Source: Candidatus Marinacidobacterium sp. (GTDB lineage Bacteria > Acidobacteriota > Vicinamibacteria > Marinacidobacterales > Marinacidobacteraceae). From it: 64,000 nt of DNA. The DNA is taken from assembly GCA_965204755.1 (NCBI GenBank), contig OZ242011.1, positions 1,568,001 to 1,632,000 on the forward strand. The letters run 5' to 3'. The position numbers were made by a program, and so were the translations under genes. Of the stretch, positions 3,933 to 25,577 are shown one piece after another. Position 1 is the stretch's first letter; the number at the start of each line of letters is the position of its first letter. The notes under the pieces were generated by a model, which did not search any database, was not told the origin of the DNA, and was given only the letters and a program-made list of their open reading frames with translations.

Positions 3933-3995
3933 TATTGTCCGGAATATACTACTTTCTCTATTATTTCGTTCTATATTCAGAACACTATTTCTTCT
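3933..3995 (-). promoter_or_regulatory. AT-rich hipBA promoter/operator
   Basis: Sharp AT-rich patch in GC-rich DNA; inverted repeat GTTCT-ATATTC-AGAAC; TATATT -10-like hexamer on the minus strand. Confidence 0.5.
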
Positions 3996-7925: not shown

Positions 7926-8049
7926 CAGGAACGGCGCCTCGCTGCCCGCCGCCTGGGACGGCGTTCGACCGCCACTGCCCCGCTTCCGGCTTCAGCGTAT
8001 GCGCCTCGTCCTGCAGTATCAGCAGCGGCTTGGCCTTCGCGCGGGCCTC
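7926..8049 (-). repeat. Inverted diverged copy of the Walker-B region of the downstream ATPase (8509-8632)
   Basis: Minus strand encodes ARAKAKPLLILQDEAHTLKPEAGQW versus ARAKAKPLLILLDEAHTLKPEVGQW in the gene. Confidence 0.88.
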
Positions 8050-8112
8050 AGTCGCGCTCCTCGCCGGGCCCGACCCCGCGGCGCGGCTCTCCGTCCCTAT
8101 ACTCGGCGGGTC

Positions 8113-9255
8113 ATGTCGGAAGCCGGCGTCCGCAATCCGTTCCGGCCCGGCCACGGGGGGGCGCCCCCGTATCTCGCCGGGCGGGAGCCGGAGCAGGCGC
8201 TGTTCCGCGAGGTATCGGACGACCTGCGGAGCGGCGTTCCTGTTTCCCGTTCGCTCGTCGTCTACGGGCCGCGCGGCAACGGGAAGACTGCCCTGCTCCG
8301 ATGGGTGAAGCGGCAGGCCGCCGTGGACGAGGGGCTGGACGCCCATTGGCTGGTCGGGTCGGACATTCCGGCGCCGGCCGACTTCGTGGCCCGCTTGGGG
8401 CTCGGTTCCTGGCTGCGGAAGATCGCGCCGGAGAGCGTTTCGATTGCCGGGGTGGGGGTTTCGCTGCGGCGGGGCGACGATCGGCCGTTGTTGCTCGCGG
8501 AGGCGCTGGAGGCGCGCGCGAAGGCCAAGCCGCTGCTGATCCTGCTGGACGAGGCGCATACGCTGAAGCCGGAGGTGGGGCAGTGGCTGCTGAACGCCGC
8601 GCAGGCGGCGGGCAGCGAAGCGCCTTTCCTGTTGGTTCTCGCCGGGACGCCCGACCTGCGGGCTCGGCTTTCCGAAATGGAAGCATCTTTCTGGAACCGG
8701 GCCAGGCAACTCCCGCTCGGCCGGTTGGACGAGGCCGCCGCCGGGGAGGCGATTCGCCGGCCGCTGGCCGACGACGGGATCTGCATCGAGGACGAGGCGC
8801 TGGCGCGCATCGTTCGGGAGAGCCACGGGTATCCGTTCTTCGTCCAGTTGTGGGGGCGGGCGGCGTGGGACCGGGTGCGCGGGGCCGGCGGCGGAGCGGG
8901 CCGGGTGACGATGGCCGTCGTGGAGGAAGCCGCCGGCGCGTTCGAGGTCGAACGAAACCGCTACTACCTCGACCGGTTCCGGGAACTGGAGGAGCGGGAC
9001 TTGCTCCCGGCGGCGCGAGCGGTAGCGGCGGCGTTTCCGGAGGAGGGCCTGTTGATCCACGCCGCCTTCCGCCGGGCTGTCGGACGAAGCGCCGGTGACG
9101 GCCCCGGTCGCTCCGAGGCGAAAGCGCTCGAGCACCTCGGTTTCGTCCGGCAGGCGGGAGGGACGCCGAGTTGGGAGCCGGGGATTCCCAGCCTGATGGA
9201 CTACATCCTGGAATACGCGCCGCCGCCGGGCGACGACGAAGCCTTCGGCGGATAG
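8113..9255 (+). CDS. AAA_16/STAND-like ATPase
   Basis: NPFRPGHGGAPPYLAGRE, Walker A YGPRGNGKT, Walker B LLDEAH, SHGYPFFVQLWG; TATACT 9 nt before the ATG. Confidence 0.85.
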   Translation: MSEAGVRNPFRPGHGGAPPYLAGREPEQALFREVSDDLRSGVPVSRSLVVYGPRGNGKTALLRWVKRQAAVDEGLDAHWLVGSDIPAPADFVARLGLGSWLRKIAPESVSIAGVGVSLRRGDDRPLLLAEALEARAKAKPLLILLDEAHTLKPEVGQWLLNAAQAAGSEAPFLLVLAGTPDLRARLSEMEASFWNRARQLPLGRLDEAAAGEAIRRPLADDGICIEDEALARIVRESHGYPFFVQLWGRAAWDRVRGAGGGAGRVTMAVVEEAAGAFEVERNRYYLDRFRELEERDLLPAARAVAAAFPEEGLLIHAAFRRAVGRSAGDGPGRSEAKALEHLGFVRQAGGTPSWEPGIPSLMDYILEYAPPPGDDEAFGG

Positions 9256-9342: not shown

Positions 9343-9437
9343 GAAGCCGCCTGCGTCGAGGGCCGCTGCTCCGTCCGCTGACCGCCGGCCGACGACGAAC
9401 CCGAACGCCGTTCGGCGTTACCGGGAGGGCGCGGCGC
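9343..9437 (+). repeat. Direct-repeat copy of the lipoprotein 3' end plus flank (matches 7693-7787)
   Basis: gaagccgcctgcgtcgagggccgctgctccgtccg(c/t)tgaccgccggccgacgacgaacc is near-identical in both places. Confidence 0.9.
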
Positions 9438-9479
9438 AATGTAGGAGATCGAGACGCCGGCTTCGGGCTCCGGGATAGC

Positions 9480-9724
9480 GTCCCGCACCGTGGGACTTCC
9501 CGTTCAGATCGAACGGGTTGCCGGGAGTCGTGTCGCCGGGGGCGAATTCGACGAGGATGCGGTCGTCGTCCGTAACGGAAATCGCGCCCGCCGACCGGAG
9601 GGCATCGGGAGCATCGGCGCCGCCTCCGAGCGCTAACGCCGCAACCAACGACGAGCAGGCGAAAGCCAGTCGCCCGCGGTGACTCGAAAGGCGAGCGGGG
9701 GTGGCGGCAGGAGGGTGGGCACAT
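9480..9724 (-). pseudogene. 5' remnant of a secreted protein gene (frameshifted, truncated)
   Basis: SD aaggag + ATG at 9724; a different frame gives LVAALALGGGADA...ISVTDDDRILVEFAPGDTTPGNPFDLNGKS, then breaks off near the repeat. Confidence 0.45.
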
Positions 9725-9866
9725 CGAGTCTCCTTACGGTTCTCGCCACGGCGGCATATTCACGGCGGAGTCGGACCGCCCGGTCCCCGAGGCGGGCGTC
9801 CCCCTCGTCCGGCGCTGTCGATCGGCTGGAACGGCGCTCCCGCCGTGGCTTGCGACGAATTCGGCC

Positions 9867-11288
9867 TCACCAGGTAGTCGGCAGCCGCCGCGGCAACAGC
9901 ACCGTCGGGCGAGTGGACTCGAAATGGATGATGGCGTCGAACCAGTCCGGCATCGACGCCGGCGCGAAGTAGAAGTCCTCCGCCGGCCGGTCCGTGCCGA
10001 AGCAGCAGCCGATGTGGCGGAACCGGCGCGGTTCGGCCAGCCACTCGCCTCCGGGCTCGTCCGCGGTTCCGCGCAGGTCCAGCAGGAACCGCGGAGCGGA
10101 CGCGCCGCCGAGATACTCCTCGAAGGAGTTCGGAAGCGGCGGATCGAGTTCGAGTTCCCTCAGCCCGGAAAGACCCCGGGTCAGGCTGACCGCGGTGAAA
10201 CGGCCGCGTTCGTGGCTGAACCCGATGACCACCATGTCGTCGCCGAAGACCTCTCGCAGGTAGTGCCCCTGGGCCTCCGGCTGCGTCGAAACATGGAAGT
10301 TGTGCGCCCAGAGCACCATCCGACTCTCCGGCCCGATCCGCTCAGTGAGCCAGATCGTGTTGTCCGCCATGGATTCGTCCCGGAACTGTTCGCCGGTCGT
10401 CTGCCAGTGGTACTGGAGGGCGACGCGCATGCTCTGCCGGGCGATCGCGTAGGTGTCGGCGCCCCCCGCGATTTCGTACCGCTCCCGGTTCGCCTCCAAG
10501 ACTCCGCGCACCCCTTCGAGCGCCGCGCCGCACTCCGCGAGGTAGGCGTCCGTCTGGTTCCGATACCGGTCCGCCGGACGACTCCCGTCGGGTCCCTGGG
10601 CGAAACGATCGAGACAGTCGAGTTCGGCGGTTACGGCGGACAGCCGCGCCGGATCCACGAACCGGATGAACTCGCGCACGATGTGGAGAGGCATTCCCGG
10701 ATGGTTCATGTCCACTCCATGGAACCCGATGTCCCCGCCGGCTTCATTGTGCTCCCGCATCCATTCGATCATTTCGAGAACCGACTCCGTGTTCCAGGTC
10801 CAGTAGTAGAGCCCGGCCAACAGGACTGCGGAGTTGCCCTCCCCGGTGCGCACATAGCGGTCGATCCGCATCGCCTCCGGCCAGGAAGCCTCGATGGCGA
10901 AGGTGTCGAAGCCCATCTCTTCGACCAGGAACCGGAGGATGCGCGCCTTCATCTCGAAGAAATCCCGCGTGCCGTGCGTGTTCTCGCCGAGGGCCACGAT
11001 CCGGGCGTCGCCCACCAGGTCGCGCAGGAACTCGATATCCGTGTGCGGCAGCGACAGATGGGAGCCGTCGAACGGTTGGACATTGGCGTCGAGCCAGGCA
11101 GCCACTTCTTCGGGAACGGCGGCCGGCATCGGTGCTGTCGGTTCCTCCGTAGGCGGCGGGGTTGCCGGGGGCGGCGCCGCCGGGGTCGCCGGCGGCGTCG
11201 AGTCCTCTCCGCAACCCGAACCGAGGACGATGGCCGTGACCAGCGCGGCGGCGGGCCCGAGTCGCCGGGTGAATTGCCATGGCCTCAT
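9867..11288 (-). CDS. Erythromycin esterase family lipoprotein (copy 1)
   Basis: Lipobox LGSGC; ALGENTHGTRDFF, FAIEASW, LWAHNFH, FDAIIHF; SD gaggag. Confidence 0.9.
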   Translation of the reverse strand: MRPWQFTRRLGPAAALVTAIVLGSGCGEDSTPPATPAAPPPATPPPTEEPTAPMPAAVPEEVAAWLDANVQPFDGSHLSLPHTDIEFLRDLVGDARIVALGENTHGTRDFFEMKARILRFLVEEMGFDTFAIEASWPEAMRIDRYVRTGEGNSAVLLAGLYYWTWNTESVLEMIEWMREHNEAGGDIGFHGVDMNHPGMPLHIVREFIRFVDPARLSAVTAELDCLDRFAQGPDGSRPADRYRNQTDAYLAECGAALEGVRGVLEANRERYEIAGGADTYAIARQSMRVALQYHWQTTGEQFRDESMADNTIWLTERIGPESRMVLWAHNFHVSTQPEAQGHYLREVFGDDMVVIGFSHERGRFTAVSLTRGLSGLRELELDPPLPNSFEEYLGGASAPRFLLDLRGTADEPGGEWLAEPRRFRHIGCCFGTDRPAEDFYFAPASMPDWFDAIIHFESTRPTVLLPRRLPTTW

Positions 11289-11308
11289 GAGGTCTCCTCG
11301 ACGAACTG

Positions 11309-12757
11309 TCAGAAGGGAAGGATGACGGTCGGCCGGGTCGTTTCGAAGTGGACGATCACATCGAACCATTCTGCGAGCGGAGTGTCTTCCCAGAAATGAT
11401 CGGGGTGGTCCGGGTCGTAGCAGCAGCCGATGTGGCGGAAGGGGCGGGTCTCCGAGAGCCAGGAAGTCGCTGCGGAGTTCTCGTCGCGATTCCGAAGGTC
11501 GAGCATGAACCGGGGTGCGGACGCCCCTGACAGGTAGTGTTCGATCGAAGACTCGAGGGGAGTGTCGAGGTCGAAGGCAAGCAACTGTCCCGGATCGTGG
11601 AAGTGTTCGGAACCGACGAAGCGCGTGAACCAGCGGATCGCCGAGAATCGGCCCCTCTCGTGTGAGAAGCCGATGATCAACATGGCGTCCCCGAAGGTCT
11701 GGCGCAGGTGGAAACCTTGGGCCCCCGGCTGTGTGGAGATGTGGTAGTTGTGCGCCCAGAGAGCCATGCGGCCTTCCGGCCCGATCCTTCGGCTGATCCA
11801 CTCGACATTCTCGGCCATGAACTCGTCGCGTCTGGCCGATCGCTCATCTGGATCTTCGAAGTTGTCCCTGAGGTGGTACTGGTAGGCGACGCGAAGGCTC
11901 TGGAGCGCCACCTCGAAGGCGTCGGCGCCGCCGGCCGCCTCGTACCGGGTTCGGTTCTGCAAGAGCCAGTCGCGAACGCTGTCGAGGGAGGCGCCGCAGA
12001 GGTCCCGGTATGCCGCCGTCTGGTCTCCGTAATCCAGATTCGGGAAAATGCCGGAGTCGTTGTTCGCGAACACGGAGAGGCAACGGATCTGCTCCGAGAC
12101 GCGATCCGTATTCTCCGGATCCACTCGGCGCATGTAGTCGCGGACATTGCGGAGCGCCAGTCCCGGAAATTGCATATCGAATCCATGGAAGCCGATGTCT
12201 CCGCCGGCCTCGTTGTGGGCCCGCATCCACTCGATCATCTCCAGTACGGATTCCGTGTTCCAAGTCCAAAAATGGAGGTCGGCGAGCAGTCGCGCCGGAT
12301 CGCCTTCACCGGTGCGCACATAGCGGTCGAGCAGCCGGGCCTCCGGCCAGGTGGCTTCGATGGCGAAGGTGTCGAAACCCAACTCCTCGACCAGGAACCG
12401 GAGGATCCGCGCCTTCATTTCGAAGAAGTCGCGTGTGCCATGGGTTCCCTCCCCGAGGGACACGATCCGCGCATCGCCGACCAGTTCAGGCAGGAACTGC
12501 AGGTCGTCCGACGGCAGCGACAGATGCGAGCCATCGAAGGGGTGGACATTGGCGTCGAGCCAAGCCGCCACTTCGTCGGGGACGGGCCCGGGCTCCGGCG
12601 CATCCGGCGACGAGGTGCTCGGGGGCGGGGCGGGTGGACTGACCGGTGCAGCGGGACTTGCCGGCGCGGTCGCGTCCTGTCCGCACCCCGGCATTACGGT
12701 CAGCGCCCCGAACAGCGCGCTTTTCGCGCATACTCGCAACGAAAGAAACATCGCCAT
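11309..12757 (-). CDS. Erythromycin esterase family lipoprotein (copy 2)
   Basis: Lipobox-like VMPGC; SLGEGTHGT, FAIEATW, LWAHNYH; SD caggag. Confidence 0.9.
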   Translation of the reverse strand: MAMFLSLRVCAKSALFGALTVMPGCGQDATAPASPAAPVSPPAPPPSTSSPDAPEPGPVPDEVAAWLDANVHPFDGSHLSLPSDDLQFLPELVGDARIVSLGEGTHGTRDFFEMKARILRFLVEELGFDTFAIEATWPEARLLDRYVRTGEGDPARLLADLHFWTWNTESVLEMIEWMRAHNEAGGDIGFHGFDMQFPGLALRNVRDYMRRVDPENTDRVSEQIRCLSVFANNDSGIFPNLDYGDQTAAYRDLCGASLDSVRDWLLQNRTRYEAAGGADAFEVALQSLRVAYQYHLRDNFEDPDERSARRDEFMAENVEWISRRIGPEGRMALWAHNYHISTQPGAQGFHLRQTFGDAMLIIGFSHERGRFSAIRWFTRFVGSEHFHDPGQLLAFDLDTPLESSIEHYLSGASAPRFMLDLRNRDENSAATSWLSETRPFRHIGCCYDPDHPDHFWEDTPLAEWFDVIVHFETTRPTVILPF

Positions 12758-12929
12758 GCCCTCCTGCGTGCCGGCCGCGCCCCCGCCGGCGTGGCGGGGC
12801 GCGGTCTCGGATGTTGCCAAAGTGGGATGATCTCTTGCAAATGTCCGCCGAGACGGCTTGGGGCGGAGACCGACAGGCCCGGTTCGCCGGGTCGGGGGCC
12901 GGCCGACGGCGTCTACGCGGAGCGCGGGG

Positions 12930-14372
12930 TCAGAACTCGGCGGGCGGAAGCCAAGGCAACGGCACGGTCGGCCTCGTCGAGTCGAAGTGGACGACGGCGT
13001 CGTACTGCCGGGCGAGCGCCGTGCGCGACCAGAAATCTTCCGCCCTCGTCGGATCGAAAGCGTAAAAGATCGCGCGGAACGGGCGGGACTCGAAGAGCCA
13101 GCCGGACCCGGAGGCGTCCGGATCCGAGCCCCGCAGATCGAGGACGAACCGGGGCTCGGTCGCCGACTCGAAGTACGCCTCGAAGGCTCCCTCGACCGGC
13201 GGGTCGAGTTCGAGTTCGCCGTATCTGACATAGGAGGAACCCTCCAGTTCCGATCCCGCGAATCTGCCGCTCGCGTGACTGAACGCGACCGCGACCAACT
13301 CGCTGCCCGACGTGAACGGCCGGGAGAAGACGCTCCCGGCGCCGTGAGCCGAGATGTCCCAGTTGTGCGCCCAGACGACTGCCCGGCTTTCCGGGGCCAT
13401 CCGCTCGACGAGCCAGTCCAGGTTCTCCGCGATGGACTCGTCTCGTGTCTGCTCCCGCACCACCCAGAGGTGGTACTGGAATGCGACGCGATGGCTCCTC
13501 AGAGCGAGGGCGAACGCGTCCTCCCCGGCAGCGGCTTCGTACTCTTGCCGTTTCGAGACCAAGAGGGATCCTGCCTCTTCGAGCGATTCTCCGCAGTCGC
13601 TCCGGTAGATGTCCGTCTGGTCGCCGTAGTCCTCCTCCGGAAACCGTCCTCGGGGGTCGTTGGCGAAGCGCGAGAGACACTCCAGCCGCTCCGCCACGGC
13701 CGGCAGGTCGTCCGGGGCCGCCTCGCGGATGTACTCCCGCAGATCGTGGAGCGCCATTCCCGGATGCGCCATGTCTAGGCCGTGGAATCCGACGCGCCCG
13801 CCGTTCTCGTGGCGTCCGCGCATCCATTCGATCATTTCGAAGAACGCGTTCGTGCCTGGATTCCCGAGATACAGGCCGGAGAGAAGCCTCACCGGGTCGC
13901 GTTCTCCGGTTCGCAGATAGTGGTCGAGGCGGCGCGCCGCCGACCAGTGCGCATCCGTGACGAAGGTGTCGAAGCCCATCTCCTCGACCAGGAAGCGAAC
14001 TATTCGCGCCTTCATCTCGACGAACTCCTGGGTGCCGTAGGTGTTCTCGCCGAGGGCCACGAACCGGGCTTCGCCCACCAAGTCTCGGAGAAAGGCCAAG
14101 TCGTCGTTGGGTCGCGAGAGGTCGGTCGCGCCAATGGCGGTGACATTCGCATCGAGCCAGGCGCGTACTCCCGCCGGAACGGAAGGCGGCGCCGGCGAAG
14201 GACTCGACGGCGAGAGGGCCGGCGAGGCGGGCCCGGTCGCGTCCTGCCCGCAGTGCACGGCGAGGAGGCATACCGCGGCCGCGCCGGCGGCTCTTCGCCG
14301 CAGGGCGCGGGTCACCGCGTCACGCTTACGCCTGCCTTCCGGCAGGGGAGACATGTGCGGGACAGCGCTCAT
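12930..14372 (-). CDS. Erythromycin esterase family lipoprotein (copy 3, catalytic motif altered)
   Basis: LAVHC; ALGENTYGT (H>Y), FVTDAHW (E>D), VWAHNWD. Confidence 0.85.
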   Translation of the reverse strand: MSAVPHMSPLPEGRRKRDAVTRALRRRAAGAAAVCLLAVHCGQDATGPASPALSPSSPSPAPPSVPAGVRAWLDANVTAIGATDLSRPNDDLAFLRDLVGEARFVALGENTYGTQEFVEMKARIVRFLVEEMGFDTFVTDAHWSAARRLDHYLRTGERDPVRLLSGLYLGNPGTNAFFEMIEWMRGRHENGGRVGFHGLDMAHPGMALHDLREYIREAAPDDLPAVAERLECLSRFANDPRGRFPEEDYGDQTDIYRSDCGESLEEAGSLLVSKRQEYEAAAGEDAFALALRSHRVAFQYHLWVVREQTRDESIAENLDWLVERMAPESRAVVWAHNWDISAHGAGSVFSRPFTSGSELVAVAFSHASGRFAGSELEGSSYVRYGELELDPPVEGAFEAYFESATEPRFVLDLRGSDPDASGSGWLFESRPFRAIFYAFDPTRAEDFWSRTALARQYDAVVHFDSTRPTVPLPWLPPAEF

Positions 14373-14376
14373 CGGA

Positions 14377-15834
14377 TCACCAAGTGGTCGGGAGCCTCGT
14401 CGGGATCAGGGTCGTGGCCCGGGTGGACTCGAAGTGGATGATGGCGTCGTACCACTTCGTGAGCGGGATCCGGTCCCAGTACCGTTCCGGCGCCTCTTCG
14501 GAGTAGCAGGCTCCGCTATGTCGGAACAGGCGATTCTCGAACAGCCAGTCACTTCCAGGCTCACCCGCCGGCCGACGCAGGTCGAGCGCGAATCGAGGGG
14601 CGGCGGCTTCCTCGAAATAGAGTTCGTAGGAGTCCGGCACCGGCTGGTCGAGAGTGAACACTTGGAGTTCACCGCATCTCGGCCGGTCGCGTTCATGGAT
14701 TCGGGCAGTGAGTTGCCCGCCCCCGTGGCTGAAGCCGATCACGACCATATCGTCGCCGAACGCCAACCGCTGGTAGTAACCCTGGTCTCCCGGCCGTGTC
14801 GAGATATGGAAGTTGTGCGCCCAGAGCACCATCTTCCCCTCTGACCCGATCCGCTCGCTGAGCCAGATCGTGTTCTCCGCCATGGATGCATCGCGCGATT
14901 GTTCCCGGGTGGCGCGCAAGTGGTACTGGTAGGCGACTCGAAGAGCGTGAAGAGCAGTATCGAAAGCCTCTACTCCTCCGGCGGACTCGTATCGCTCCCG
15001 GTTCCCCTCCAAGTGCTCCCGCACCGACTCGAGCGAGGCGCCGCACTCGGCCAGGGCGGCCGCCGGCTGTGAATCGTAGCGGGGAGCCGGAGTCCGTCCG
15101 TCCGGCCCGTTCGCAAAGCGCGAGAGACAGTCGAGGTCTTCCGTCACCATCGCCAGGTGCGCCAGGTCCGCAAACCGCACGAACTCCCGCACCAGGTGGA
15201 GCGGCATTCCCGCGTGCTGCATGTCCACGCCGTGGAACCCGACATCCCCGCCGGCCTCGTTGTGTTCGCGCATCCACTCGATCATCTCGAGCACCGACTC
15301 CGTCGCCCAGGTCCAGAAGTAGAGCCCCGACAGCGCCATCGCGGAGTCGCCTTCACCCGTCCGCACATAGTGGTCCAAGCGCCGCGCCTCCGCCCAGGCG
15401 GCCTCGATGGCGAAGGTGTTGAATCCCATCTCCTCGACCAGGAAGCGGAGAATGCGCGCCTTCATCTCGAAGAAGTCCCGCGCGCCGTGTGTGTTCTCGC
15501 CGAGCGCCACGACCCGTGCGTCCCCGACCAGGTCGCGCAGGAACTCCAGGTCGTCGTGCGGCAGCGAGAGGTGGGAGCCGTCGAACGGCTCCACATTCGC
15601 GTCGAGCCAGACGCGCGCCGCCTCGGGAACGGCGCCTTCGCCCGGTGTTTCGGCTGGCGGCGGAACGGCCGGAGACGAGGGCGACGGCGCCACGGGCGAA
15701 GGCGCGTCCTCGCCGCAACCCGGCGCCCAGGTCAGCACCGCGGCGAGCGCCGCGCCGGCTCGGCAGCAGGCGGTCAGGCGTCTCCGGCGTTCGAGGGTCG
15801 GGAAGTCTCCGTCCGGCCCTCCACCTTCGCTCAC
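14377..15834 (-). CDS. Erythromycin esterase family lipoprotein (copy 4)
   Basis: WAPGC; ALGENTHGA, FAIEAAW, LWAHNFH; start codon uncertain (GTG at 15834 chosen). Confidence 0.85.
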   Translation of the reverse strand: MSEGGGPDGDFPTLERRRRLTACCRAGAALAAVLTWAPGCGEDAPSPVAPSPSSPAVPPPAETPGEGAVPEAARVWLDANVEPFDGSHLSLPHDDLEFLRDLVGDARVVALGENTHGARDFFEMKARILRFLVEEMGFNTFAIEAAWAEARRLDHYVRTGEGDSAMALSGLYFWTWATESVLEMIEWMREHNEAGGDVGFHGVDMQHAGMPLHLVREFVRFADLAHLAMVTEDLDCLSRFANGPDGRTPAPRYDSQPAAALAECGASLESVREHLEGNRERYESAGGVEAFDTALHALRVAYQYHLRATREQSRDASMAENTIWLSERIGSEGKMVLWAHNFHISTRPGDQGYYQRLAFGDDMVVIGFSHGGGQLTARIHERDRPRCGELQVFTLDQPVPDSYELYFEEAAAPRFALDLRRPAGEPGSDWLFENRLFRHSGACYSEEAPERYWDRIPLTKWYDAIIHFESTRATTLIPTRLPTTW

Positions 15835-15923
15835 GGCGTCAACCGTTCCATTCGGCGCGTCCGCGGCGCGCGGCTCCGACAACGGGTCGCCGACGGGACG
15901 ACGAGACCGGCGGCCGGTGGTCC

Positions 15924-17318
15924 TCACCAAGTGGTCGGCGGCCGATGCGGCAGGAGGGTGGTGGGCCGGGTGGACTCGAAGTGGATGATCGCGTCGTACC
16001 AGTCCGGGAGCGGCGTGTTCGGAGTGTAGAAGTCCTCCGGCTGCGCCGGATTGAAGCAGCAGCCGATGCTGCGGAACCGGCGCGGCTCCGTCAGCCAAGC
16101 GCTCCCGGACTCGCCCGGAGGCCGGCGCAAATCGAGTACGAAACGGGGCGCGGAGGCGGTGGCGAATATCGCTTCGAAAGAACCTTCAACCGGAGCGGGC
16201 AGTTCGAACTCGTCGCGTCCGGTAAAGCGCACTCCCGGTTGCCCGAAGTTCCCTTCGAATCCGACGGCGGTGAAACTTCCGGTTTCGTGACTGAAGCCGA
16301 TCACGACCATGGCGTCCCCGAACACCTGTCGTTGGTAGTAGCCTTGGGCGCCCGGCTCGGTCGAGACATGGAAGTTGTGCGCCCACAGCACTATCCGGCC
16401 TTCCGGCCCGATCCGCTCGCTGAGCCAGACCGTGTTCTCCGCCATGGATTCGTCCCGCCCCTGTTCCCCGACCACTTGCAGGTGGTACTGGTACGCCACC
16501 CGAAGACTCCGGAGCGCGATTTCGAGGGCGTCGGCTCCTCCCGCGGTTTCGTATCTCTCGCGGTTCGCCGTCAACCGTTCGCGAACACTTTCCAAGGACG
16601 CTCCGCACTCCGCCAGGTAGGCGGCGGTCCGGTCGCGATAGCGAGGCGTCGGGAATCTGCCATTCGGCCCGTTGGCGGAGCGGGTGAGGCAGTCCAGATC
16701 GTCGGTCACGGAATCCGACATCGCCGGGTCGGCGGAGCGGAAGAACTCCCGCACCAGATGGAGCGCCATTCCGGGGAACTGCATGTCCACGCCGTGGAAC
16801 CCGACATCTCCGCCGCCTTCGTTGTGGTCGCGCATCCACTCGATCATCTCCAGCACCGACTCCGTCTTCCAGGTCCAGAAATAGAGACCGGCCAACAGCA
16901 CGGCGGGGTCGCCGACGCCCGTGCGCACATAGGTGTCCAGGCGGCGCGCTTCCGGCCAAGTCGCTTCGATGGCGAAGGTGTCGAAGTCCATCTCCTCGAC
17001 CAGGAAGCGGAGGATCCGCGCCTTCATCTCGAAGAAATCCCGAGTTCCGTGGGTGTTCTCTCCGAGCGCCACGATCCGGGCGTCCCCCACCAGGTCGCGC
17101 AGGAAGTCCAGGTCGTCGTGCGGCAGGGAGAGGTGGGAGCCGTCGAACGGCTCCACATTCGCGTCGAGCCAAGCGCCGTAGGCCGCCGGCGACGGAGGGG
17201 GCGGCGGCAGAGGGGTGGCCGGCGCGCGGGGTGTGGCCGCGTTCTCGCCGCACGCGAACGAGCCCAGCGCCGGAAGGAGAAACCACGCCACGATCATCGG
17301 CCGCATCGGGATTCGCAT
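15924..17318 (-). CDS. Erythromycin esterase family lipoprotein (copy 5)
   Basis: LGSFAC; ALGENTHGT, FAIEATW, LWAHNFH. Confidence 0.9.
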   Translation of the reverse strand: MRIPMRPMIVAWFLLPALGSFACGENAATPRAPATPLPPPPPSPAAYGAWLDANVEPFDGSHLSLPHDDLDFLRDLVGDARIVALGENTHGTRDFFEMKARILRFLVEEMDFDTFAIEATWPEARRLDTYVRTGVGDPAVLLAGLYFWTWKTESVLEMIEWMRDHNEGGGDVGFHGVDMQFPGMALHLVREFFRSADPAMSDSVTDDLDCLTRSANGPNGRFPTPRYRDRTAAYLAECGASLESVRERLTANRERYETAGGADALEIALRSLRVAYQYHLQVVGEQGRDESMAENTVWLSERIGPEGRIVLWAHNFHVSTEPGAQGYYQRQVFGDAMVVIGFSHETGSFTAVGFEGNFGQPGVRFTGRDEFELPAPVEGSFEAIFATASAPRFVLDLRRPPGESGSAWLTEPRRFRSIGCCFNPAQPEDFYTPNTPLPDWYDAIIHFESTRPTTLLPHRPPTTW

Positions 17319-17836
17319 TTGCTCGCGCTCCTCGGATCCCTCGGAGCCCTGCCGCTCGGGTACGGGCTGGATCCGGCTACCGACTGTAACACCCTGTCGT
17401 CGCCACGCGATCTTCGCGACGCGCGGCCGGTCGCCGAGCCCGCTCAACCCGCTCGCACGCCGTCCGCAGACGGCTCGGCGGAGCGCCACCGCCGCCTTCC
17501 GCCCGAGTCGAGACCGGCAGCGTCCGGTTCCTCCGGATGCTGTCCGGCCGACTCCCGCGACTCGCGTGCCGATCCCTTCCCGGTGCATCCCTGATCGCGA
17601 GATCCCGGAAGCCCGCCGCCCCCCATGAGCGGCGCCGTCCTTCTCGCTGCTCGGCGGCCGAGCCCACGAGCCCGGAACCGCGCCTTGGCAGTGACGGCCG
17701 GGTCGTCGTCGACGCCTCCGGCGGAGGTTCATCGTCCCCGACGCCCTGCCCACATAATCCGCCACGAACCGCCGGACGCGTAGAGTTCGAGTCCCTCCGC
17801 TACCAGATCAATCCGCCCGTCCGGCCACACCTGTTC

Positions 17837-19036
17837 ATGCTTTCTCCGGATTGTCCCGTCCGTCCGTTGCCGCAACGCTCCCTCGCTCGGGCGAGGCGGG
17901 CTTCGCATCACTTGCCCGAGTCCGCGCCGCGGGGAACTCGGCTTATCCAGCGTCACTCCTGGCGGGCGGCGTTGTTCGCCGGGGCCGGCCTGCTGTTCGG
18001 CAGTGCCGCCTCCGGCTACCGGTTCTTCCGTGCGTACGACGACGAGTCGCTCATTGTGAAGAGCCGAAACGCCATCCGTTGGGATGCCGCGTACTGGCCC
18101 GCCGGCGCCCTACTGGAGTGGGAATTGACCGACGACCCCGGCTGGACCGAGTCGTGGGTGGACCCCATCGACGGCGAAACGAAGCCGCCGCCCTTCAGTA
18201 GTCACTCCGCCGCCGTTCCCTTCGTTCGGGAGGCGATGGCGGCTTGGAGCCGGATCCCGACCGCCGACATCCGCTGGCGCCTTACCGGCGTCGCTTCCGG
18301 CCCGGGCCTCGAGTATGACGGCCGCAATGTCATCACCGTGGACGAAGACCTCTACTTGGGCGGCTGGGCAAAGAGGTGGTTGCGCCGCGCCGACTTCGGG
18401 CGCCCTTGGGAATTGGTCGAGTGCGACATCGAAATCGGCCCGGCGGCGGCCGCGCGGCTCGGCTCCGACGATCCGCGCAGTCTGGCCGTCACGATCCACG
18501 AGTTCGGCCATTGCCTCGGACTTGCCCACTCAAGCCGCCACCCGACCATCGTCCACACCTTCCGGGACATCGGGATTTGGGGCGAAACCCCGAAGATGTC
18601 CTACGGGCTGGACCTTTCGAACGCCTTAGCCCTCGACGACATCGTCGCCGCCTCGCTGCTGCGCCCCGCCGGCGGCTGGGAGCGACGGACCGGCGCGGTC
18701 ACCGGCCGGGTCACCGCCTCCGGCTCGCCGGCCCGCTTCGCCGCTGTCGGCAGCGTCCGCCTCTTGTCAGGGGGACAGACCGCGCCGGGCCCCGGCGTCT
18801 TCACCGACGAAGACGGCGAGTTCCGACTGGAGGGCCTGGTTCCCGGCGACTACCTGATTCGCGCCGGCCCCATGACTTTCGTGAACGCCCACCGGGATCT
18901 CATCGAGGCCGGCGCCACGCTCGACGCCCTCGATAGCGCCCGGCTGAGTCCGGTCACGGTGCGCGCCGGCCACGAAGCCCGCGGCGTCGGTCTCGCAATG
19001 CCGCTAGGCCGCCGGGGAAGCGACTTCGTCCGGTGA
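17837..19036 (+). CDS. Secreted matrixin (M10-like metzincin), second paralog
   Basis: HEFGHCLGLAHS, PKMSY Met-turn, FTDEDGEFRLEGLVPG; start codon uncertain. Confidence 0.82.
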   Translation: MLSPDCPVRPLPQRSLARARRASHHLPESAPRGTRLIQRHSWRAALFAGAGLLFGSAASGYRFFRAYDDESLIVKSRNAIRWDAAYWPAGALLEWELTDDPGWTESWVDPIDGETKPPPFSSHSAAVPFVREAMAAWSRIPTADIRWRLTGVASGPGLEYDGRNVITVDEDLYLGGWAKRWLRRADFGRPWELVECDIEIGPAAAARLGSDDPRSLAVTIHEFGHCLGLAHSSRHPTIVHTFRDIGIWGETPKMSYGLDLSNALALDDIVAASLLRPAGGWERRTGAVTGRVTASGSPARFAAVGSVRLLSGGQTAPGPGVFTDEDGEFRLEGLVPGDYLIRAGPMTFVNAHRDLIEAGATLDALDSARLSPVTVRAGHEARGVGLAMPLGRRGSDFVR

Positions 19037-20304
19037 ACGGCTTCCGGCTGCGTCGCTTCGCACTCCCGGCCGCCGCGACGGCCTTCGTCAGCTGTGGAGA
19101 TGGCGCCGGAACGAACGCTCCCGCGCCATCGGCGCCGCCCGTCCGGCCGGCCCCGGTCGCCACGCCCCCGGTCACCGCGTCGCCAGACGCCGTGGCGGTC
19201 GCCTTCGTCGCCGCGTCGGCGGAGGTGTACGAGGGAGACACCGCGTCCCTCCCGATCCGCTACGAGGCACGGAGTCTCGCCGCACCCTGGCGGCTTCGCG
19301 TCTCCCCGCTGCCGGGCACCGCGCAGTCGGCCGACTTTTCCCTGCCGGACGCGGTGGTGGAGATCCCGGCGGGACAGGAGGTGACGGGAACGACGACTCT
19401 AGACTTGGTTGCGCTCCCCGACGACGAGTTCGAAGAAGGCACGGAAACACTCTCCCTGCGGTTCGTCCCCGACCCGACTGTGGACGCGGAACTCGGCGGT
19501 GACCTCCAAATCTCCATCCGGGAGGGTGGCGCCTTGGTGTCCTTCGCCGCCGGCGGGCCGGATGCGCCGCTGGAAGTCCCCGAAGGGAGCAGTGCGGCCC
19601 TGCCGATCCGTTACGAAGTGAGGAACCTCGCCGCGTCGCTGGTTCTCCGACTGTCCACGCTCGCGGAGACTGCCAACGCTGAAGAGTTCCGACTGGGGCG
19701 GAGCGCCGTCGTCCTCCCGACCGGGAGGGGGCTCTCTGGAACGACCTCGGTGAGGCTCACGGCTGTGAGGGATACACGCTTCGCCGAGGACCGTGAAACT
19801 GGACGGATCCGCTTCCTTCCCCCCACGGCAGGAGGGGTGGGCGTCCACTTGGGCCCCGACGCCCGCTTCGTCATCCCCGAGGGTGGCGCCTCCCCTTGTC
19901 CCGGCGTCTTGATCCGCGCCCTGCCACCGGTGACCCTAGCCCCGGGCGACGGCACCTTCGACGAAGGCCTGTTGTTCACTACCCTCACCGTGACCCAGGA
20001 CGCGTCCGCCGCTGAGACCGCGCTATTCCAGCGCTCGCCTTACCTCTTCACCGAACACATGGCCGAATGGGCGGTGCCTCCGGTCTCCGTGCTCAACTTC
20101 GCGGGCTGGCGGGTGGAACCGCAGGGCGGCGCGACCCGGCACTCGGTGGACCTCCGCTGGCCCGGCGAACACTCGCTCGTGGAACCGGCCTTGGAATTCG
20201 GCTTCGTGGGCGGCGGTTGTTCCGGCGTCGAGATCGCGGTCTGCTCCGCCGCCGGCTGCGAACTCACCTCCGACGGTTCGGCGGCTTCCGGTGGCGGCGG
20301 CTGA
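19033..20304 (+). CDS. Lipoprotein with two Calx-beta-like repeats and Cys-rich C-terminus
   Basis: GTGA overlap; AFVSC; repeats VYEGDTASLPIRYE...DDEFEEGTETLSLRF and VPEGSSAALPIRYE...DTRFAEDRETGRIRF; ends GGCSGVEIAVCSAAGC. Confidence 0.78.
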   Translation: MNGFRLRRFALPAAATAFVSCGDGAGTNAPAPSAPPVRPAPVATPPVTASPDAVAVAFVAASAEVYEGDTASLPIRYEARSLAAPWRLRVSPLPGTAQSADFSLPDAVVEIPAGQEVTGTTTLDLVALPDDEFEEGTETLSLRFVPDPTVDAELGGDLQISIREGGALVSFAAGGPDAPLEVPEGSSAALPIRYEVRNLAASLVLRLSTLAETANAEEFRLGRSAVVLPTGRGLSGTTSVRLTAVRDTRFAEDRETGRIRFLPPTAGGVGVHLGPDARFVIPEGGASPCPGVLIRALPPVTLAPGDGTFDEGLLFTTLTVTQDASAAETALFQRSPYLFTEHMAEWAVPPVSVLNFAGWRVEPQGGATRHSVDLRWPGEHSLVEPALEFGFVGGGCSGVEIAVCSAAGCELTSDGSAASGGGG

Positions 20305-20501: not shown

Positions 20502-21546
20502 CTTGACTTCGACGGTTTGGCTTTGTAAGTGGTTGACCGTTGGGGATTTGGTTTCGTAGGTACACTACAACCGGGCGGAGTCCGGCGGGGAGTGTCCGGG
20601 ATCAGGCGACTTCGCGGAGTCGCCTCGGGGGTGGAACCGGCGTGGCCCGCCGGGGCAGCCGCAGACCCACCAGCCGGTAGATCCGCTCCGCCTCCGGGGT
20701 GGCCTTCGAGGGCAGGAAGAACCACTCGTTGGCGCCCCGGTCGCAGCCGTGGGAGACCTCCACCCGGAGCAGTTCCCGCAGCAGCCGATCCTCGCTCAGC
20801 GGCGCCTCCGGGTAGGCCCGGGCGTAACGCCAGCGCAGCAACCGGAGCAGCGCGAAGGCGGCGTAGCAGATCGCCAAGTGCGCCCGCACCCGCCGCTCCG
20901 TCCAGTGGAACACCGGACGCACTTCCAGCGTGCCCTTCAGCACCCGGAACCCCTGCTCGATCCGCCACAACCCCCCGTAGTGCGCCCGGATCTCCGCCGG
21001 CGGGTCTGCCAAGCTGGTGAACACCCCGTGGAGCCCGTCGAACCGCGCGTCCCGTTCCACCAGATCCGGGTCGAACCGCACCGCATCCCGCCGCACCCGC
21101 AGGTAGCGCGCGGCCCGCCCCTTCCCCTTCACCCCCGACGCCTCCCGCTTCTTCGCCTGCTTCACCGCCTTCGCCCGGAGCCCCGCGTCCCGCTCCGCCT
21201 TCTTCGGGCAGTAACGCACCACCAGCCGAAGCCCCCGCAGCGCCCCCTCCTCCGCCCGGTGCTCCCGCAGCCGCCGCCCCTCCTCCCCCGAAGCGGCCCA
21301 AGACTCCGGCTCCGCCAGCGCCGCCAGGTCCTTCCCCCGCAACCGGCGGAGCTTCGCCGCCACCACCCACTCGAAACCCGCCGCCGTCAACGCCTCCAGG
21401 TTCTTCGCCTCCGGGACCGCCGCGTCCGCCACCACCACCACCCGACTCATCACAAAACGCCACGGCACACTACAAACCGGATCCAGACTGCCGCCCCTAC
21501 TGCACCAAGGACTTCCGGGCCCAGAACCGGGCCAAATCGAGTCAAG
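20502..21546 (-). mobile_element. IS1634-family element, internally deleted
   Basis: Terminal inverted repeats CTTGACTTCGA (20502) and TCGAGTCAAG (ends 21546); flanking 11-bp direct repeat ATCCCTCCGTT at 20491-20501 and 21547-21557. Confidence 0.8.
20602..21451 (-). pseudogene. IS1634-family DDE transposase, C-terminal half only
   Basis: VVVVADAA, YGGLWRIEQGFRVLKGTLEVRPVFHWTERRVRAHLAIC; the N-terminal part carrying the first catalytic Asp is absent. Confidence 0.8.
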
Positions 21547-21618
21547 ATCCCTCCGTTGAGCGGGTGGGGGTTGCGGCATCCGAGTCAGCGCCCCGCAGAC
21601 GGCCGCCCACAAGCGGGG

Positions 21619-22161: not shown

Positions 22162-22661
22162 ACCCGATGGCAGGAAATGCCGGGCCCTTGCCGACCGCTA
22201 TGCCGCTCGATGCGCCCTGCCCGGCGGGGCCGGCTGCGGGGTGCTTCGGTTGCTCCTGTCCCTCTGTCCCGGCCGTCGCGCTCACCGCTCGGACGCTCCG
22301 TCAAGGTGCCTCGGACTCCGCCGCTGTCCTCCCCGCCATCCCGGAACCGGAGCCCGAAGTGTCCACTCTTCGTGTCCTATTGACACCGCGAGGGCCAACT
22401 GCGCCGGGCCCCGTACCGGGCGGTTGACACGCGGACCGGAAATTCGGGATACTCCGTCGCTCGCTTCAAGAATCTGAACCGAAGCGCCTCTTGTCGAAGG
22501 GGTTAGCCGCGTTGGATTCTTCTTACAAACCGTTGAAAACAATGACTTTTACGCCACGGCTCAGGCCTGCCTGCCCGATGTGGCCGATGGTCCGGCCGTT
22601 GCTGCCTGTCAGCATCTCACGGTATTTCATGCTCACCGCTCCACAAGGAGGACCTCGCAGC

Positions 22662-25577
22662 GTGAAGAGAACTTTTCTTTTTGCTCTGCTGCTGAGTTGG
22701 CCGGCCACGGCTTTCTCGCAGCAGATCTACGGGCGGCTCGAAGGTGCGGCCAGCGACGCGCAGGGCCTCGTGCTCCCGGGCGTCACCGTCACTCTCGACA
22801 GTGCCGAGTTGGTGAGTGCCCGGACCGCCACGACCGATGTGGACGGTTCCTACCGGTTCGCGCAGTTGACCGGTGGCAGTTACACGGTGACTTTCGAACT
22901 CGGCGGCTTCCAGACGGTGGTGCACGAGGATGTCATCGTCGTCGGTGGTTCCACCTATGCGATCAACGCCGAGATGGCTATCGCCACCGTCGCCGAGACG
23001 ATCACGGTGACCGGCGAGTCTCCGGTCGTGGATGTGAAGACGACCGGCGTTTCCGCCACTTTCGACACCACGCAACTTGAAGATGTGCCTTCCGCGACGG
23101 ACATGTGGGCGGTCCTCCAGCAGAGCCCGGGCGTACGGATGCGTGGTTACGATGTGGGCGGCTCCCACAAGAGCCAGCAGTCCGGCTATGAGACTTTCGG
23201 AGTCCGTGGTCAGAATCGGATCATCAACGATGGAGTGAATACGACCGAAGGTACCGGTGGTGCCGGCGGCTACTACGACTTCTATGCCATCGGTGAGTTC
23301 CAGGTGTCGGCGCAGGGCGCCGATGTCGAATCCGACACGCCGGGCGCGACGGTGAACGCCGTGTGGAAGAGTGGCGGTAACGAGTTTTCCGGGACCGAGC
23401 ACTTCGCGTACGAACCGGCGGGTTGGATCGCGGACAACATTACTTCCGATTTGTCGGGTCGCGGCGGCACTTCCGCGCCGGTGATCGGCTTCTACGAGTA
23501 TCACTTGGACTTGGGTGGGCCGATCATGCGGGACAAGGCATGGTTCTACGCCGCCTACAACCGCTTCTACATCGATCGCGTCATCTCCGGGCAACCCCGG
23601 GAAGTTGCGACGGATGTGGGTGACTTCGACATGTTCACCGTCAAGGCAAATTGGCAGATCACCGATCGCGATCAGTTCATCACTTTCCACCATTGGTCGC
23701 TGAAACAGAAGCCGTTCCGGGGGTTGTCGGCCACTGTGCCCGCCGAATCCATCCGAGCGCAGGATTCGTGGAGTTGGCTCCACAAGGCGGAATGGCAGCG
23801 CGTTTGGAGTGACCGGCTGTATTCGAACATCCAAGTGAATCACTTCGGATTCGGCTGGCCGATGGTGCCCGCAGTGGACCCTGCGACGAACCCTCCTCGT
23901 ATCGATCTCGACACTTCGAATCTCACGGGAGCCGGTTGGGGTGTCTTCACTTTCAACCGTTGGAAGCCGCACACCACCGGTCAGTTCAACTACTACTTGC
24001 CGGTAGGAAGCGGAAGCCACGACTTCAAGTTCGGCTGGGACCTGCAGATCGACGAAAGGCAGTTCGGCTGGAACTCCAATTCCGGAGCCATCCGCTATCG
24101 GGACCGGAGCGGGCAGGATCCCGCGCGTCCTCACCATGTGAGCGAAGTGGACTTCTGGAGCGTGCCGAACTTCAACCAGGACCGCAACACCCACATGGAC
24201 TTCTATGTTCAGGATGTGTGGACGATTTCCGATCGCCTGACGCTCAACGCCGGAGTTCGGGTCGGTAGCCAAAGAATCGGCTACCTCGCTTCCGACAATA
24301 CTCCGGGCGGCACCTGTCCCGCGGTCGTCGGGTGTATTCGGGAAATCGCCGATATCGACGGGAATGTCGCCACGGCCATGCCATTGTTGTTCGGTCCCGG
24401 AGCGGCGATTCCGGCAGCCAGCAACCTCATCAGTTGGTGGAACATTGCGCCTCGCGTCGGGTTTACTCTCGACATTACCGGTGAGGGCCGTTCGGTATTG
24501 AAGGGTTATTGGGGTCGCTATTACCACAACATGAACTCCGGTATGCCTGATTCCAACCCCGGTGGCAACAAGTCGGTGCGTTACGAGTTCTTGGACCAAA
24601 ACGAGAACGGCCTCTTTGACGGCGTGAATGAACTGGGCGAGCGGCGGAGCGGGAGTTCTGCGGCGGGCCTCGCGCGCGATGGGATTGACCACAGCCAAGC
24701 GCCGACGGGCGATCCGATCGATCCGAACCTGTGGCAACCCTATGTGGATGAACTGAGTGTTTCGGTTGAGCATCAGGTCGGAAACGACATCGGGCTTCGG
24801 GCGTCGCTGGTTCATAAGCGTCAGACGGGCTATTGGAACAACCTCAACATCGCACGCATCGGGACACTGACGAACTCCAAACAGGTCGCGTGCCCGGATA
24901 CCTGTCCGGACGGACTCGCCGGCACGATGCTCACGGTGAACGATTTGCCGGATGACGCTCCCGGGAGCGAGAACCTGCACACGAATGCCCCCGATGCCGA
25001 GTCGGCGTTCAACTGGACGACCGTGTCGTTGGGCGTGAACCGGCGGTTCCGCAACAACTTCTTCTGGAACGCGTACTTCGACTACCAGTGGCGCCACGAA
25101 GGTCGGACTCCGGGCCAGTCCACGAGCCCGTTGACGACGGATCCGGTCGGTGTCGGCTGGGCTCCGCAGTACGGTTTCATCCCGCACCTTCAGGATCTGA
25201 CGAACTGGCAGGGGAAGGCTGCGGCCCGTTATGTGATGCCCTATGACATCGGGCTCGCCGGGACGCTGCGCTATGTGAGCGGATTTCCTTGGTCGCCGCT
25301 CCTGACCGTGGGTGTCGGGAATGTGGGGAATCAAACGATTTTCCTGGACAATCTGGATAACCGCCGTTCCAATACAGTGACGATTCTCGACTTCCGGGTC
25401 GACAAGGCAGTCGCCTTGGGCGATTCGGCGGAGATCCAACTCATGGTGGACTTCTTCAACGCCCTGAACAACACTGCGGAGACCAACTTCGTGATGAGAG
25501 CGGGGAGCACTTACCGGAAGCCCATCGAGTGGATTCAGGGACGGACGATCGGTCTCAGTGCGAGGCTGACCTTCTGA
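22662..25577 (+). CDS. TonB-dependent receptor-like outer membrane protein (Oar-like, carboxypeptidase-regulatory N-domain)
   Basis: SD aaggagg + GTG; signal peptide; DAQGLVLPGVTVT...ETITVTGESPVVD; APRVGF; terminal Phe (GLSARLTF). Confidence 0.9.
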   Translation: MKRTFLFALLLSWPATAFSQQIYGRLEGAASDAQGLVLPGVTVTLDSAELVSARTATTDVDGSYRFAQLTGGSYTVTFELGGFQTVVHEDVIVVGGSTYAINAEMAIATVAETITVTGESPVVDVKTTGVSATFDTTQLEDVPSATDMWAVLQQSPGVRMRGYDVGGSHKSQQSGYETFGVRGQNRIINDGVNTTEGTGGAGGYYDFYAIGEFQVSAQGADVESDTPGATVNAVWKSGGNEFSGTEHFAYEPAGWIADNITSDLSGRGGTSAPVIGFYEYHLDLGGPIMRDKAWFYAAYNRFYIDRVISGQPREVATDVGDFDMFTVKANWQITDRDQFITFHHWSLKQKPFRGLSATVPAESIRAQDSWSWLHKAEWQRVWSDRLYSNIQVNHFGFGWPMVPAVDPATNPPRIDLDTSNLTGAGWGVFTFNRWKPHTTGQFNYYLPVGSGSHDFKFGWDLQIDERQFGWNSNSGAIRYRDRSGQDPARPHHVSEVDFWSVPNFNQDRNTHMDFYVQDVWTISDRLTLNAGVRVGSQRIGYLASDNTPGGTCPAVVGCIREIADIDGNVATAMPLLFGPGAAIPAASNLISWWNIAPRVGFTLDITGEGRSVLKGYWGRYYHNMNSGMPDSNPGGNKSVRYEFLDQNENGLFDGVNELGERRSGSSAAGLARDGIDHSQAPTGDPIDPNLWQPYVDELSVSVEHQVGNDIGLRASLVHKRQTGYWNNLNIARIGTLTNSKQVACPDTCPDGLAGTMLTVNDLPDDAPGSENLHTNAPDAESAFNWTTVSLGVNRRFRNNFFWNAYFDYQWRHEGRTPGQSTSPLTTDPVGVGWAPQYGFIPHLQDLTNWQGKAAARYVMPYDIGLAGTLRYVSGFPWSPLLTVGVGNVGNQTIFLDNLDNRRSNTVTILDFRVDKAVALGDSAEIQLMVDFFNALNNTAETNFVMRAGSTYRKPIEWIQGRTIGLSARLTF

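Follow-up and report, generated by a model that had tools for sequence, protein, structure and literature searches.

What are five tandem copies of an erythromycin-esterase (Ere) family gene for? The question is raised by positions 9867-17318 of the window, by which we mean the whole 64,000-nucleotide stretch of Candidatus Marinacidobacterium sp. DNA that was analysed. Known Ere enzymes confer resistance from genes that are mostly single-copy and often mobile, and a first-pass annotation had read this array as an envelope-anchored panel that detoxifies or processes a range of macrolactones or esters, with a variable loop setting specificity. In our view the array probably arose long ago by a tandem expansion within its lineage, the products being exported and likely lipid-anchored hydrolases of a BcR135/136-like branch, with a diversified loop and a transporter-linked locus. 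By the sequence and profile tests run, it is not a macrolide-resistance locus. New here are the lengthening of the loop, mainly in this genus, the covariation of a loop cysteine with an 'AC' state elsewhere in the protein, and the presence of 1, 3 or 5 copies beside a transporter gene.

The array is real, it is old, and it consists of five genes. Open reading frame (ORF) calls, with starts set from the N-terminal signal, gave the five head-to-tail genes that the first-pass annotation had described; all are PF05139 genes on the minus strand, and all are intact. G1 (9867..11288; 473 aa) has a signal ending in LGSGC and a 36-aa Pro-rich linker. G2 (11309..12757; 482 aa) carries its Cys in VMPGC and has a 6-aa insert before R303. 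G3 (12930..14372; 480 aa) is a paralogue with H105Y, E133D and H332D, and with YA replacing CC. G4 (14377..15834; about 485 aa, start uncertain) combines a Cys in its loop (RPRCGE) with 'AC' in place of 'CC', and the signal of G5 (15924..17318; 464 aa) ends in GSFAC. G1, G2 and G5 start with ATG and have GAGGAG or AGGAGG upstream (GAGGAG for G1, AGGAGG for G2). No ATG is available to G4, for which the candidate starts are GTG 15834, TTG 15882 and GTG 15927, the last overlapping the G5 stop as GTGA.

At the protein level the five cores share 49-71% identity; at the DNA level the copies share 60-84%, a figure that holds even for their best-conserved 300 nt, and the period is 1450-1600 nt. The array is therefore far beyond chance, and the DNA values mark the duplicates as old and free of recent gene conversion; at such divergence synonymous sites are likely saturated. 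Misassembly does not explain the array either, since contigs from other public runs bridge several of the genes: G1-G2-G3-G4 are joined in this way, and contigs in X4 (9348-15246), X3 (10980-14884) and X5 (12538-15260) match the array with 90-100% likeness, that of X5 with zero differences from the window. Relative to the window, the spacer between G3 and G2 is longer by a GC-rich insert of 27 nt (12902-12905) in the X3, X4 and X8 contigs. Several runs with array DNA are labelled sponge metagenome. The host genome is one 3.98-Mb contig and has a sixth copy, G6, at C1:440684-442138. A sigma-70 promoter and terminator scan returned no promoters and one terminator-like site, under the shuffle means, such a scan being uninformative for this phylum.

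The same gene structure could have come from neutral birth-and-death in a mobile, variable island, in which the copies would be redundant and the changes in the loop and in G3 would reflect relaxed constraint. Transposase genes and fragments flank the array, and its GC content is 0.66-0.68, as against 0.70-0.72 on both flanks; these features speak for such an island. That all five ORFs have stayed intact despite having drifted to 60-84% DNA identity speaks against it, as do several properties of the loop and of G3 described below.

All five copies match the full PF05139 profile (1-358), with 160-248 bits against a cut-off of 26.4 and E-values of 1.3e-46 to 2.4e-73; the score of 160 bits is that of G3. 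A protein atlas search returned only PF05139 clusters. The AlphaFold2 (AF2) models of G1 (predicted local distance difference test, pLDDT, 92.1; predicted template-modelling score, pTM, 0.87) and G2 (pLDDT 91.9) both have the two-lobe fold, with an alpha/beta major lobe and a helical minor lobe. When the G1 model was compared by Foldseek, the target-normalised template-modelling (TM) score was 0.85-0.86 to 3b55/2rad/2qgm and 0.71-0.74 to EreC (6xcq/6xcs).

According to the parts of PMC7979712 used here, EreC catalysis employs H50 as general base together with E47, E78, H289 and R261. The equivalent set is complete in G1 (E102, H105, E133, R303 and H329) and is kept in G2, G4, G5 and G6, and it is incomplete in G3. 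Across alignment A2, E102 is present in 63/65 rows, H105 in 58/65 and E133 in 62/65, and R303, H329 and N330 are each found in 65/65. The conserved Ere core (LGExTHG, FAIEA, WAHN) that had been ascribed to every copy was thus recovered in G1, G2, G4 and G5, but G3 reads LGENTYG, FVTDA and WAHNWD. Since the Glu-His, Glu, Arg and His set that EreC uses to activate water is kept in G1, G2, G4, G5 and G6, we infer that these copies hydrolyse esters or lactones outside the cytoplasm and need no metal to do so.

Sequence searches place the array nearer to the Bacillus cereus structures than to the resistance enzymes. With phmmer, the nearest solved proteins were 2qgm (2.9e-36) and 2rad/3b55 (2.6e-32), and EreC (6xcq) aligned over the N-terminal third only. 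A profile built from 65 relatives reached 2qgm at 8e-77, 2rad/3b55 at 4.9e-76 and EreC 6xcq at 4.2e-22. The NCBIfam models for the resistance enzymes (NF000208, NF000209 and NF000516, covering EreA/EreB/EreD) scored far below their cut-offs, at 37.5-87 bits vs 750 for EreB, 30.3-48.5 vs 800 for EreD and 15-33.4 vs 750 for EreA.

These scores bear on the possibility that the array is a periplasmic resistance panel, made of esterases that inactivate macrolides or other antibiotics and directed at the macrolactones of the host community. Its attraction lies in the family name, taken from EreA-D, in the catalytic residues held in common, in a variable loop that aligns with a pocket-wall loop of EreC, and in the run labels, which point to sponges; sponge habitats are rich in polyketides. 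Macrolides, however, act in the cytoplasm, and to our knowledge EreA-D carry no export signal, both of which count against a panel outside it, as do the EreB scores and the still lower ones for EreD and EreA. The active-site lid differs as well. In EreC it is a Gly/Pro-rich loop (residues 295-303; PMC7979712, in the parts used here), and in the profile alignment this loop, which follows WAHN, is 9 residues longer in EreC and 7 longer in BcR135/136 than in the array's family, where the local sequence is STQPGAQG. Finally, the best solved relative, BcR136, is described in the relevant portion of PMC6109786 as cleaving p-nitrophenyl butyrate and not macrolides. The detoxification of macrolactones proposed in the first-pass annotation accordingly finds no support, and of the explanations considered here we judge the resistance panel to be the least probable. 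Resistome surveys should leave the array out of their tally of resistance determinants.

Where would the enzymes act? Every copy begins with basic residues, a hydrophobic stretch and a Cys, followed by G-[EQ]-[DN] and a Pro-rich linker of 24-38 aa with 8-13 Pro, which bears out the Pro-rich tether noted in the first pass; in the AF2 model this linker has low confidence. The lipobox Cys that had been assigned to each copy needs qualification. The Cys and a signal-like N-terminus are present in all five, but the strict lipobox pattern, as in PROSITE, fits only G1 (LGSGC) and G5 (GSFAC), and G2 (VMPGC), G4 (WAPGC) and G3 (LAVHC) fit a loose pattern only. Across the N-terminal rows of the family, 36/62 fit strictly and 57/62 loosely, and all the in-group rows listed have a hydrophobic stretch, then a positionally conserved Cys and then acidic residues. 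Acidic residues after the lipid-anchor Cys resemble the Bacteroidota lipoprotein export signal. The host has genes for lipoprotein maturation, namely Lgt (PF01790; C1:725176-725880) and the signal peptidase II LspA (PF01252; C1:724600-725025), and lspA and lgt adjoin each other (C1:724600-725880). C225 and C253 (G1 numbering) are invariant in 5/5 copies and 68/68 in-group rows, which fits an oxidising compartment. The paired cysteines reported for most copies are thus found in all five as C225/C253, and as IGCC in G1, G2 and G5. Taken together, these features suggest that the copies are exported and probably lipid-anchored.

G3 stands apart from the other copies. Its general-base His is replaced by Tyr (H105Y), it also carries E133D and H332D, and YA takes the place of CC; R303, H329 and N330 are retained. 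Judged by these residues, G3 cannot work by the Ere mechanism. Its branch is the longest in the tree (0.74), which would suit relaxed constraint under the neutral account. G3 is nevertheless clearly not decaying and stays an intact gene in related populations, by the evidence of its orthologues, because five of these (P0001-P0005; 80-96% identity), all full length, keep the altered residues: all have the Tyr, Asp332 and the His before the Cys, and the E133 position is Asp in 4/5 and Asn in 1/5. Such retention down to 80% identity, with a single Asp-to-Asn exception, counts against neutrality. A 55% relative has the Tyr, the Asp and WAEN. The residue pattern points to a conserved paralogue that is either non-catalytic or chemically altered, possibly a binding protein.

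The His-to-Tyr change is not confined to G3. It occurs in 7/65 rows of A2, namely G3, gene 2 of L006 and the second domain of five fused proteins; a sixth fused protein, L046, was left out of A2 and carries it too. In these fused two-domain Ere-like loci (L013, L026, L035, L038, L042 and L046; e.g. L013:7083-10589), which are 893-1305 aa from stop to stop, the first domain is His-type with a signal and Cys, the second is Tyr-type, and about 15 Pro-rich residues form the joint. Identity between G3 and the other Tyr-type rows is 47-48%. In the free tree the change needs two origins. A tree joining the eight Tyr-type rows was 3.35 log-likelihood units better and was not rejected (approximately unbiased test, p-AU 0.586), for a group named after the tree had been seen and containing the long branch of G3. 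A complex prediction for the G2 and G3 cores, prompted by a Rosetta-stone argument from the fused relatives and run without controls, gave no support for it, with interface scores (ipSAE) of 0.00 and 0.00, which are evidence neither way.

The five loop strings quoted in the first-pass annotation are all exact matches in the window, on the minus strand: VSLTRGLSGLRE in G1 (10155..10190), IRWFTRFVGSEHFHDPGQLLA in G2 (11576..11638; its hairpin loop, 23 aa by the length measure used below, is the longest), SELEGSSYVRYGE in G3 (13215..13253), IHERDRPRCGELQV in G4 (14659..14700), which carries the covarying Cys, and VGFEGNFGQPGVRFTGRDE in G5 (16209..16265; hairpin loop of 21 aa by that measure). In the AF2 model of G1 the loop is a hairpin tip between strands 352-368 and 376-380. 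It is the most indel-rich segment of the catalytic domain, so the claim that divergence is concentrated there stands for length. It does not stand for substitution, as the minor-lobe helices and the stretch after IGCC have a column entropy similar to that of the loop.

Loop length follows the family's history. The loop is 15 aa long in 51/68 family rows, and in the main Longimicrobiales clade (21 rows) its sequence is conserved as xQRGSxYxGL. Lengths of at least 16 residues occur in nine rows, six of which come from the host genome or a same-genus genome, including every loop of 20-23 residues (G2 23, G5 21, L003 20, L004 20, G4 and L043 17; the others are L041 with 19 and L008/L009 with 16). 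Because the length is 15 in 51/68 rows and lengthening is found mainly in this genus, the loop appears to be constrained in single-copy genes and rewritten after duplication, a pattern that fits diversification after duplication. The tight conservation in single-copy genes and the near-invariance of the core columns across 68 rows count against a neutral origin of these changes.

A second property of the loop points the same way. A loop Cys is present in 7/68 rows, G4 included, and all seven have 'AC' at 428-429 in place of 'CC'; the 61 rows without it comprise 47 with 'CC' and 14 with other states. The double state needs 5 changes on the tree, and the two sites lie 50 residues apart. Five joint changes are again not what the neutral account would lead one to expect, and the simplest reading of the covariation is a disulfide between the loop Cys and C429. 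The covariation would place the loop tip against the IGCC segment, downstream of which lies the other variable part of the major lobe.

Could the loop set specificity, as had been proposed? In the G1 model, the strand count makes it the beta7-beta8 loop, with a long strand taken as one or two, and the helix count makes the Arg303 helix alpha12. The profile alignment sets it opposite EMQFPSPGSPLGFSV (QFPSPGSPLGF) of EreC. Section 9 of PMC7979712, which we cite in part, reports that spiramycin could not be modelled in EreC because of clashes with the beta7-beta8 loop, and that tulathromycin clashes with alpha12. From its homology to the EreC beta7-beta8 loop, the variable loop is predicted to be part of the pocket wall. 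A role in specificity is plausible in light of this alignment with a loop that borders the macrolide pocket.

PF05139 was found in 17/41 related genomes, with 16/24 in the window's own family and 0/16 in two sister families. Named loci at 54-70% identity belong to metagenome-assembled genomes (MAGs) labelled Candidatus Marinacidobacterium, Vicinamibacteria, Acidobacteria, Longimicrobiales or Gemmatimonadota, and the host genome itself is closest, among named relatives, to MAGs with a Candidatus Marinacidobacterium or Vicinamibacteria label. A tree of 76 domains nests an Acidobacteriota clade of 44 rows inside Gemmatimonadota diversity. Same-genus copies group with G1, G4, G5 and G6, and with G3 in the free tree; G2 falls elsewhere with weak support. 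Arrays of 2-3 copies are common, and no array seen exceeds five. The literature searched yielded no publication about Ere arrays, Ere-family lipoproteins or the clade itself, for the siderophore query among the matches listed.

The neighbourhood of the array suggests how it arose. A gene for a TonB-dependent-transporter-like outer-membrane protein (CarboxypepD_reg and OMP_b-brl_4) lies at 22491..25577 on the plus strand, and its place next to the Ere locus is conserved in three genomes; the window protein shares 83% identity with its L027 counterpart and 77% with the one in L003. At this orthologous locus L027 has one Ere gene, adjacent to and co-oriented with the transporter gene, L003 has three and the window five; copy number among related genomes, which the first pass had left to be determined, thus differs at one and the same place. 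A HipA-like kinase gene (HipA_C and Couple_hipA; window 2314-3948, minus strand) is 68% identical to the HipA beside the L003 array. G6 lies 3.9 kb from an OMP_b-brl_4 gene, so that both host Ere loci are within about 4-5 kb of such a gene, of which there are 15 in 3.98 Mb (places listed). Outside the phylum, a single Ere orthologue follows a SusC/RagA-family transporter gene (TIGR04056, 417 bits vs a cut-off of 368) in 20/25 Gemmatimonadota-labelled loci, adjacent to it and in the same orientation. At 19-20 of these loci the cluster includes, upstream, a weak SusD-like gene (E = 4.6e-4, below cut-off) and a 170-aa gene of unknown family and, downstream of Ere, a convergent PepSY_TM gene. In L005, L010 and 18 other Longimicrobiales loci (e.g. 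L010:2257-10438) the SusC-like proteins are 84-95% identical, and the SusD-like gene encodes 466 aa.

Other features of the window may be noted here. Three genes, for a protease, a lipoprotein and a transposase, separate the array from the transporter gene. The first two (17537-20304, plus strand) encode a CarboxypepD_reg protein with a matrixin-like motif, HEFGHxxGLxH, and then a 423-aa putative lipoprotein (FVSCGDG) without a Pfam match; neither has a counterpart in related loci. The third is a DDE transposase gene (20602-21612, minus strand), whose depth in other runs is high and of which fragments with 84-93% identity lie between G6 and its transporter gene (L060:2936-4740). GC content is low a second time, at 0.62, over 22-26 kb, where the transporter gene lies. 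On the other side of the array, a STAND/AAA_16 ATPase gene (7999-9255, plus strand) appears in other runs at a word depth 5 to 20 times the array's, as would be expected of a multi-copy family; six tandem matches to it occur in L043. An ankyrin-repeat protein gene (61791-63560, minus strand) matches six Ank-type Pfam families.

The transporter gene that neighbours Ere, both in Longimicrobiales and in this genus, also favours another reading, in which the copies would be ligand-binding lipoproteins like ChaN and not enzymes, and would pass heme or a chelate on to that TonB-dependent transporter. ChaN (2g5g) has the same major-lobe fold, the Ere gene of L004 is preceded, at a distance of about 3.3 kb, by a heme-oxygenase-like gene, and G3-type copies are without the general base. 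Against these points, no copy matched PF04187 (ChaN) at E <= 0.01, and the Foldseek TM score to 2g5g was 0.28 (query-normalised) or 0.48 (target-normalised). The AF2 models of the array proteins contain the minor lobe, which ChaN, a heme transport protein, is without (PMC7979712, in the parts used here), and between 58 and 65 of the 65 rows retain the water-activating residues. We therefore regard a purely ligand-binding array as very improbable.

The explanation that we prefer, an expansion of exported hydrolases with a diversified loop, would work as follows. The array enzymes would act outside the cytoplasm on a Pro-rich tether of 24-38 aa. The locus would go back to one Ere gene adjoining a gene for a TonB-dependent transporter. 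Once copies had arisen, the beta7-beta8 hairpin would have been lengthened and rewritten at its tip in this genus, with the segment after IGCC varying too. Because this hairpin forms part of the substrate-pocket wall in EreC, the copies most likely differ in the ester substrates that they accept. As the ancestral Ere gene would have adjoined a transporter gene, the enzymes probably process compounds imported across the outer membrane, such as nutrients or ester-backbone chelators, and would not protect the ribosome from macrolides.

Several findings weigh against this explanation. The lipobox deviates by Pro at -2 in G2 and G4 and by His at -1 in G3. The beta7-beta8 assignment comes from our own strand count and the profile alignment, at a Foldseek identity to EreC of 19-20%, and in the G2 model the 23-aa loop has pLDDT <50, so it is likely flexible and maybe simply floppy. 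The transporter gene of the window is 5.2 kb from the array, on the opposite strand and with a transposase gene between, and the arrangement is not operonic. No transporter was present in the fetched DNA, some of it short, of 19/23 other Acidobacteriota-labelled loci, and in two Bacteroidota outgroup loci Ere sits among peptidase and alpha/beta-hydrolase genes, contrary to a general transporter rule. The single PepSY_TM gene of the host genome (C1:611650) is far from both Ere loci, and no RNA run was among the public runs listed for the array. Copies can also decay, because two of the three in the same-genus array L003 are frameshifted; in L008 the third copy is split. These damaged copies, together with the low-confidence G2 loop, add to the case for neutral birth-and-death, which we take seriously but consider unlikely given the intact ORFs, the constrained loop and core, the joint cysteine changes and the conserved residues of G3.

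A more specific version of the preferred explanation can be imagined, although it seems to us quite improbable in its full form. The array would be a piracy toolkit of outer-membrane-tethered lactone/ester hydrolases with different beta7-beta8 loops, each opening a different ester-backbone chelator or macrolactone of another sponge-microbiome member at or after import through the neighbouring TonB-dependent transporter, with G3-type His-to-Tyr proteins, which in relatives are fused to an active domain, as non-catalytic capture subunits that stem from the enzyme. If this were true, the Ere fold would natively serve to scavenge nutrients or iron, a role from which the clinical macrolide esterases would have been recruited.

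This locus offers a lead to the native function of the Ere family outside the four resistance enzymes. It is a natural experiment: four paralogues look active and differ mostly in a loop predicted to line the pocket, another, conserved one is without the general base, and the orthologous locus occurs with 1, 3 or 5 copies beside a TonB-dependent transporter gene. The set could show what determines substrate range in the Ere fold and where the macrolide esterases came from. It also adds a candidate function for sponge-associated Acidobacteriota and Gemmatimonadota, which share the clade.

How does the array compare with known systems? The best matches in both sequence and fold are two Bacillus cereus proteins, BcR136 (2qgm) and BcR135 (3b55/2rad), which carry the deposited name 'succinoglycan biosynthesis protein' and have the two-lobe fold and the same catalytic residues. 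The first-pass annotation had contrasted the lipid anchor with the characterised EreA/EreB esterases. The start of 2qgm, STALLVTGCAEV, contains the lipobox-like LLVTGC and aligns to the signal and Cys of the array's family, so that lipid anchoring is not new in this family. In the portion of PMC6109786 used here, 3B55 is BcR135 and 2QGM is BcR136, both cleave p-nitrophenyl butyrate, and BcR136 is reported as without macrolide esterase activity. The two differ from the array in a Foldseek identity of 24-25%, in the 7-residue longer loop after WAHN, and in being without C225/C253, the CC cysteines and the Pro-rich tether.

EreA/B/C/D belong to the same Pfam family. EreC shares the fold at TM 0.71-0.74, the equivalents of E47/H50/E78/R261/H289 are found in four of the five copies, and the segment assigned as the beta7-beta8 loop aligns with the variable loop. 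The array differs from EreA/EreB/EreD in its low NCBIfam scores, from EreC in a lid loop shorter by 9 residues, and from the Ere enzymes as a group in the export signal and tether of its copies. The Campylobacter enterobactin esterase Cee, considered as an Ere-family member, was dropped as a comparison: it aligns with IroE and PfeE, which are GxSxxG alpha/beta hydrolases (PMC11852561, as far as cited here). The fused Acidobacteria Ere-like lipoproteins are of the same clade as the array and share the His-to-Tyr change of G3 in their second domain, but join two domains in one polypeptide where the array has separate genes.

The last comparison is with the xenosiderophore system XusABC of Bacteroides, which combines a TonB-dependent transporter, a surface lipoprotein and a PepSY reductase, and which in one species has a periplasmic esterase gene in its operon (PMC13142918, in the part cited). 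XusB is a DUF4374 binding protein and the array proteins have the Ere fold, and in the host genome the PepSY_TM gene is far away and the transporter gene lies 5 kb off on the other strand. The Longimicrobiales loci come closer, as 19-20 of them have the same triad, with the Ere orthologue between the SusC-family and PepSY_TM genes.

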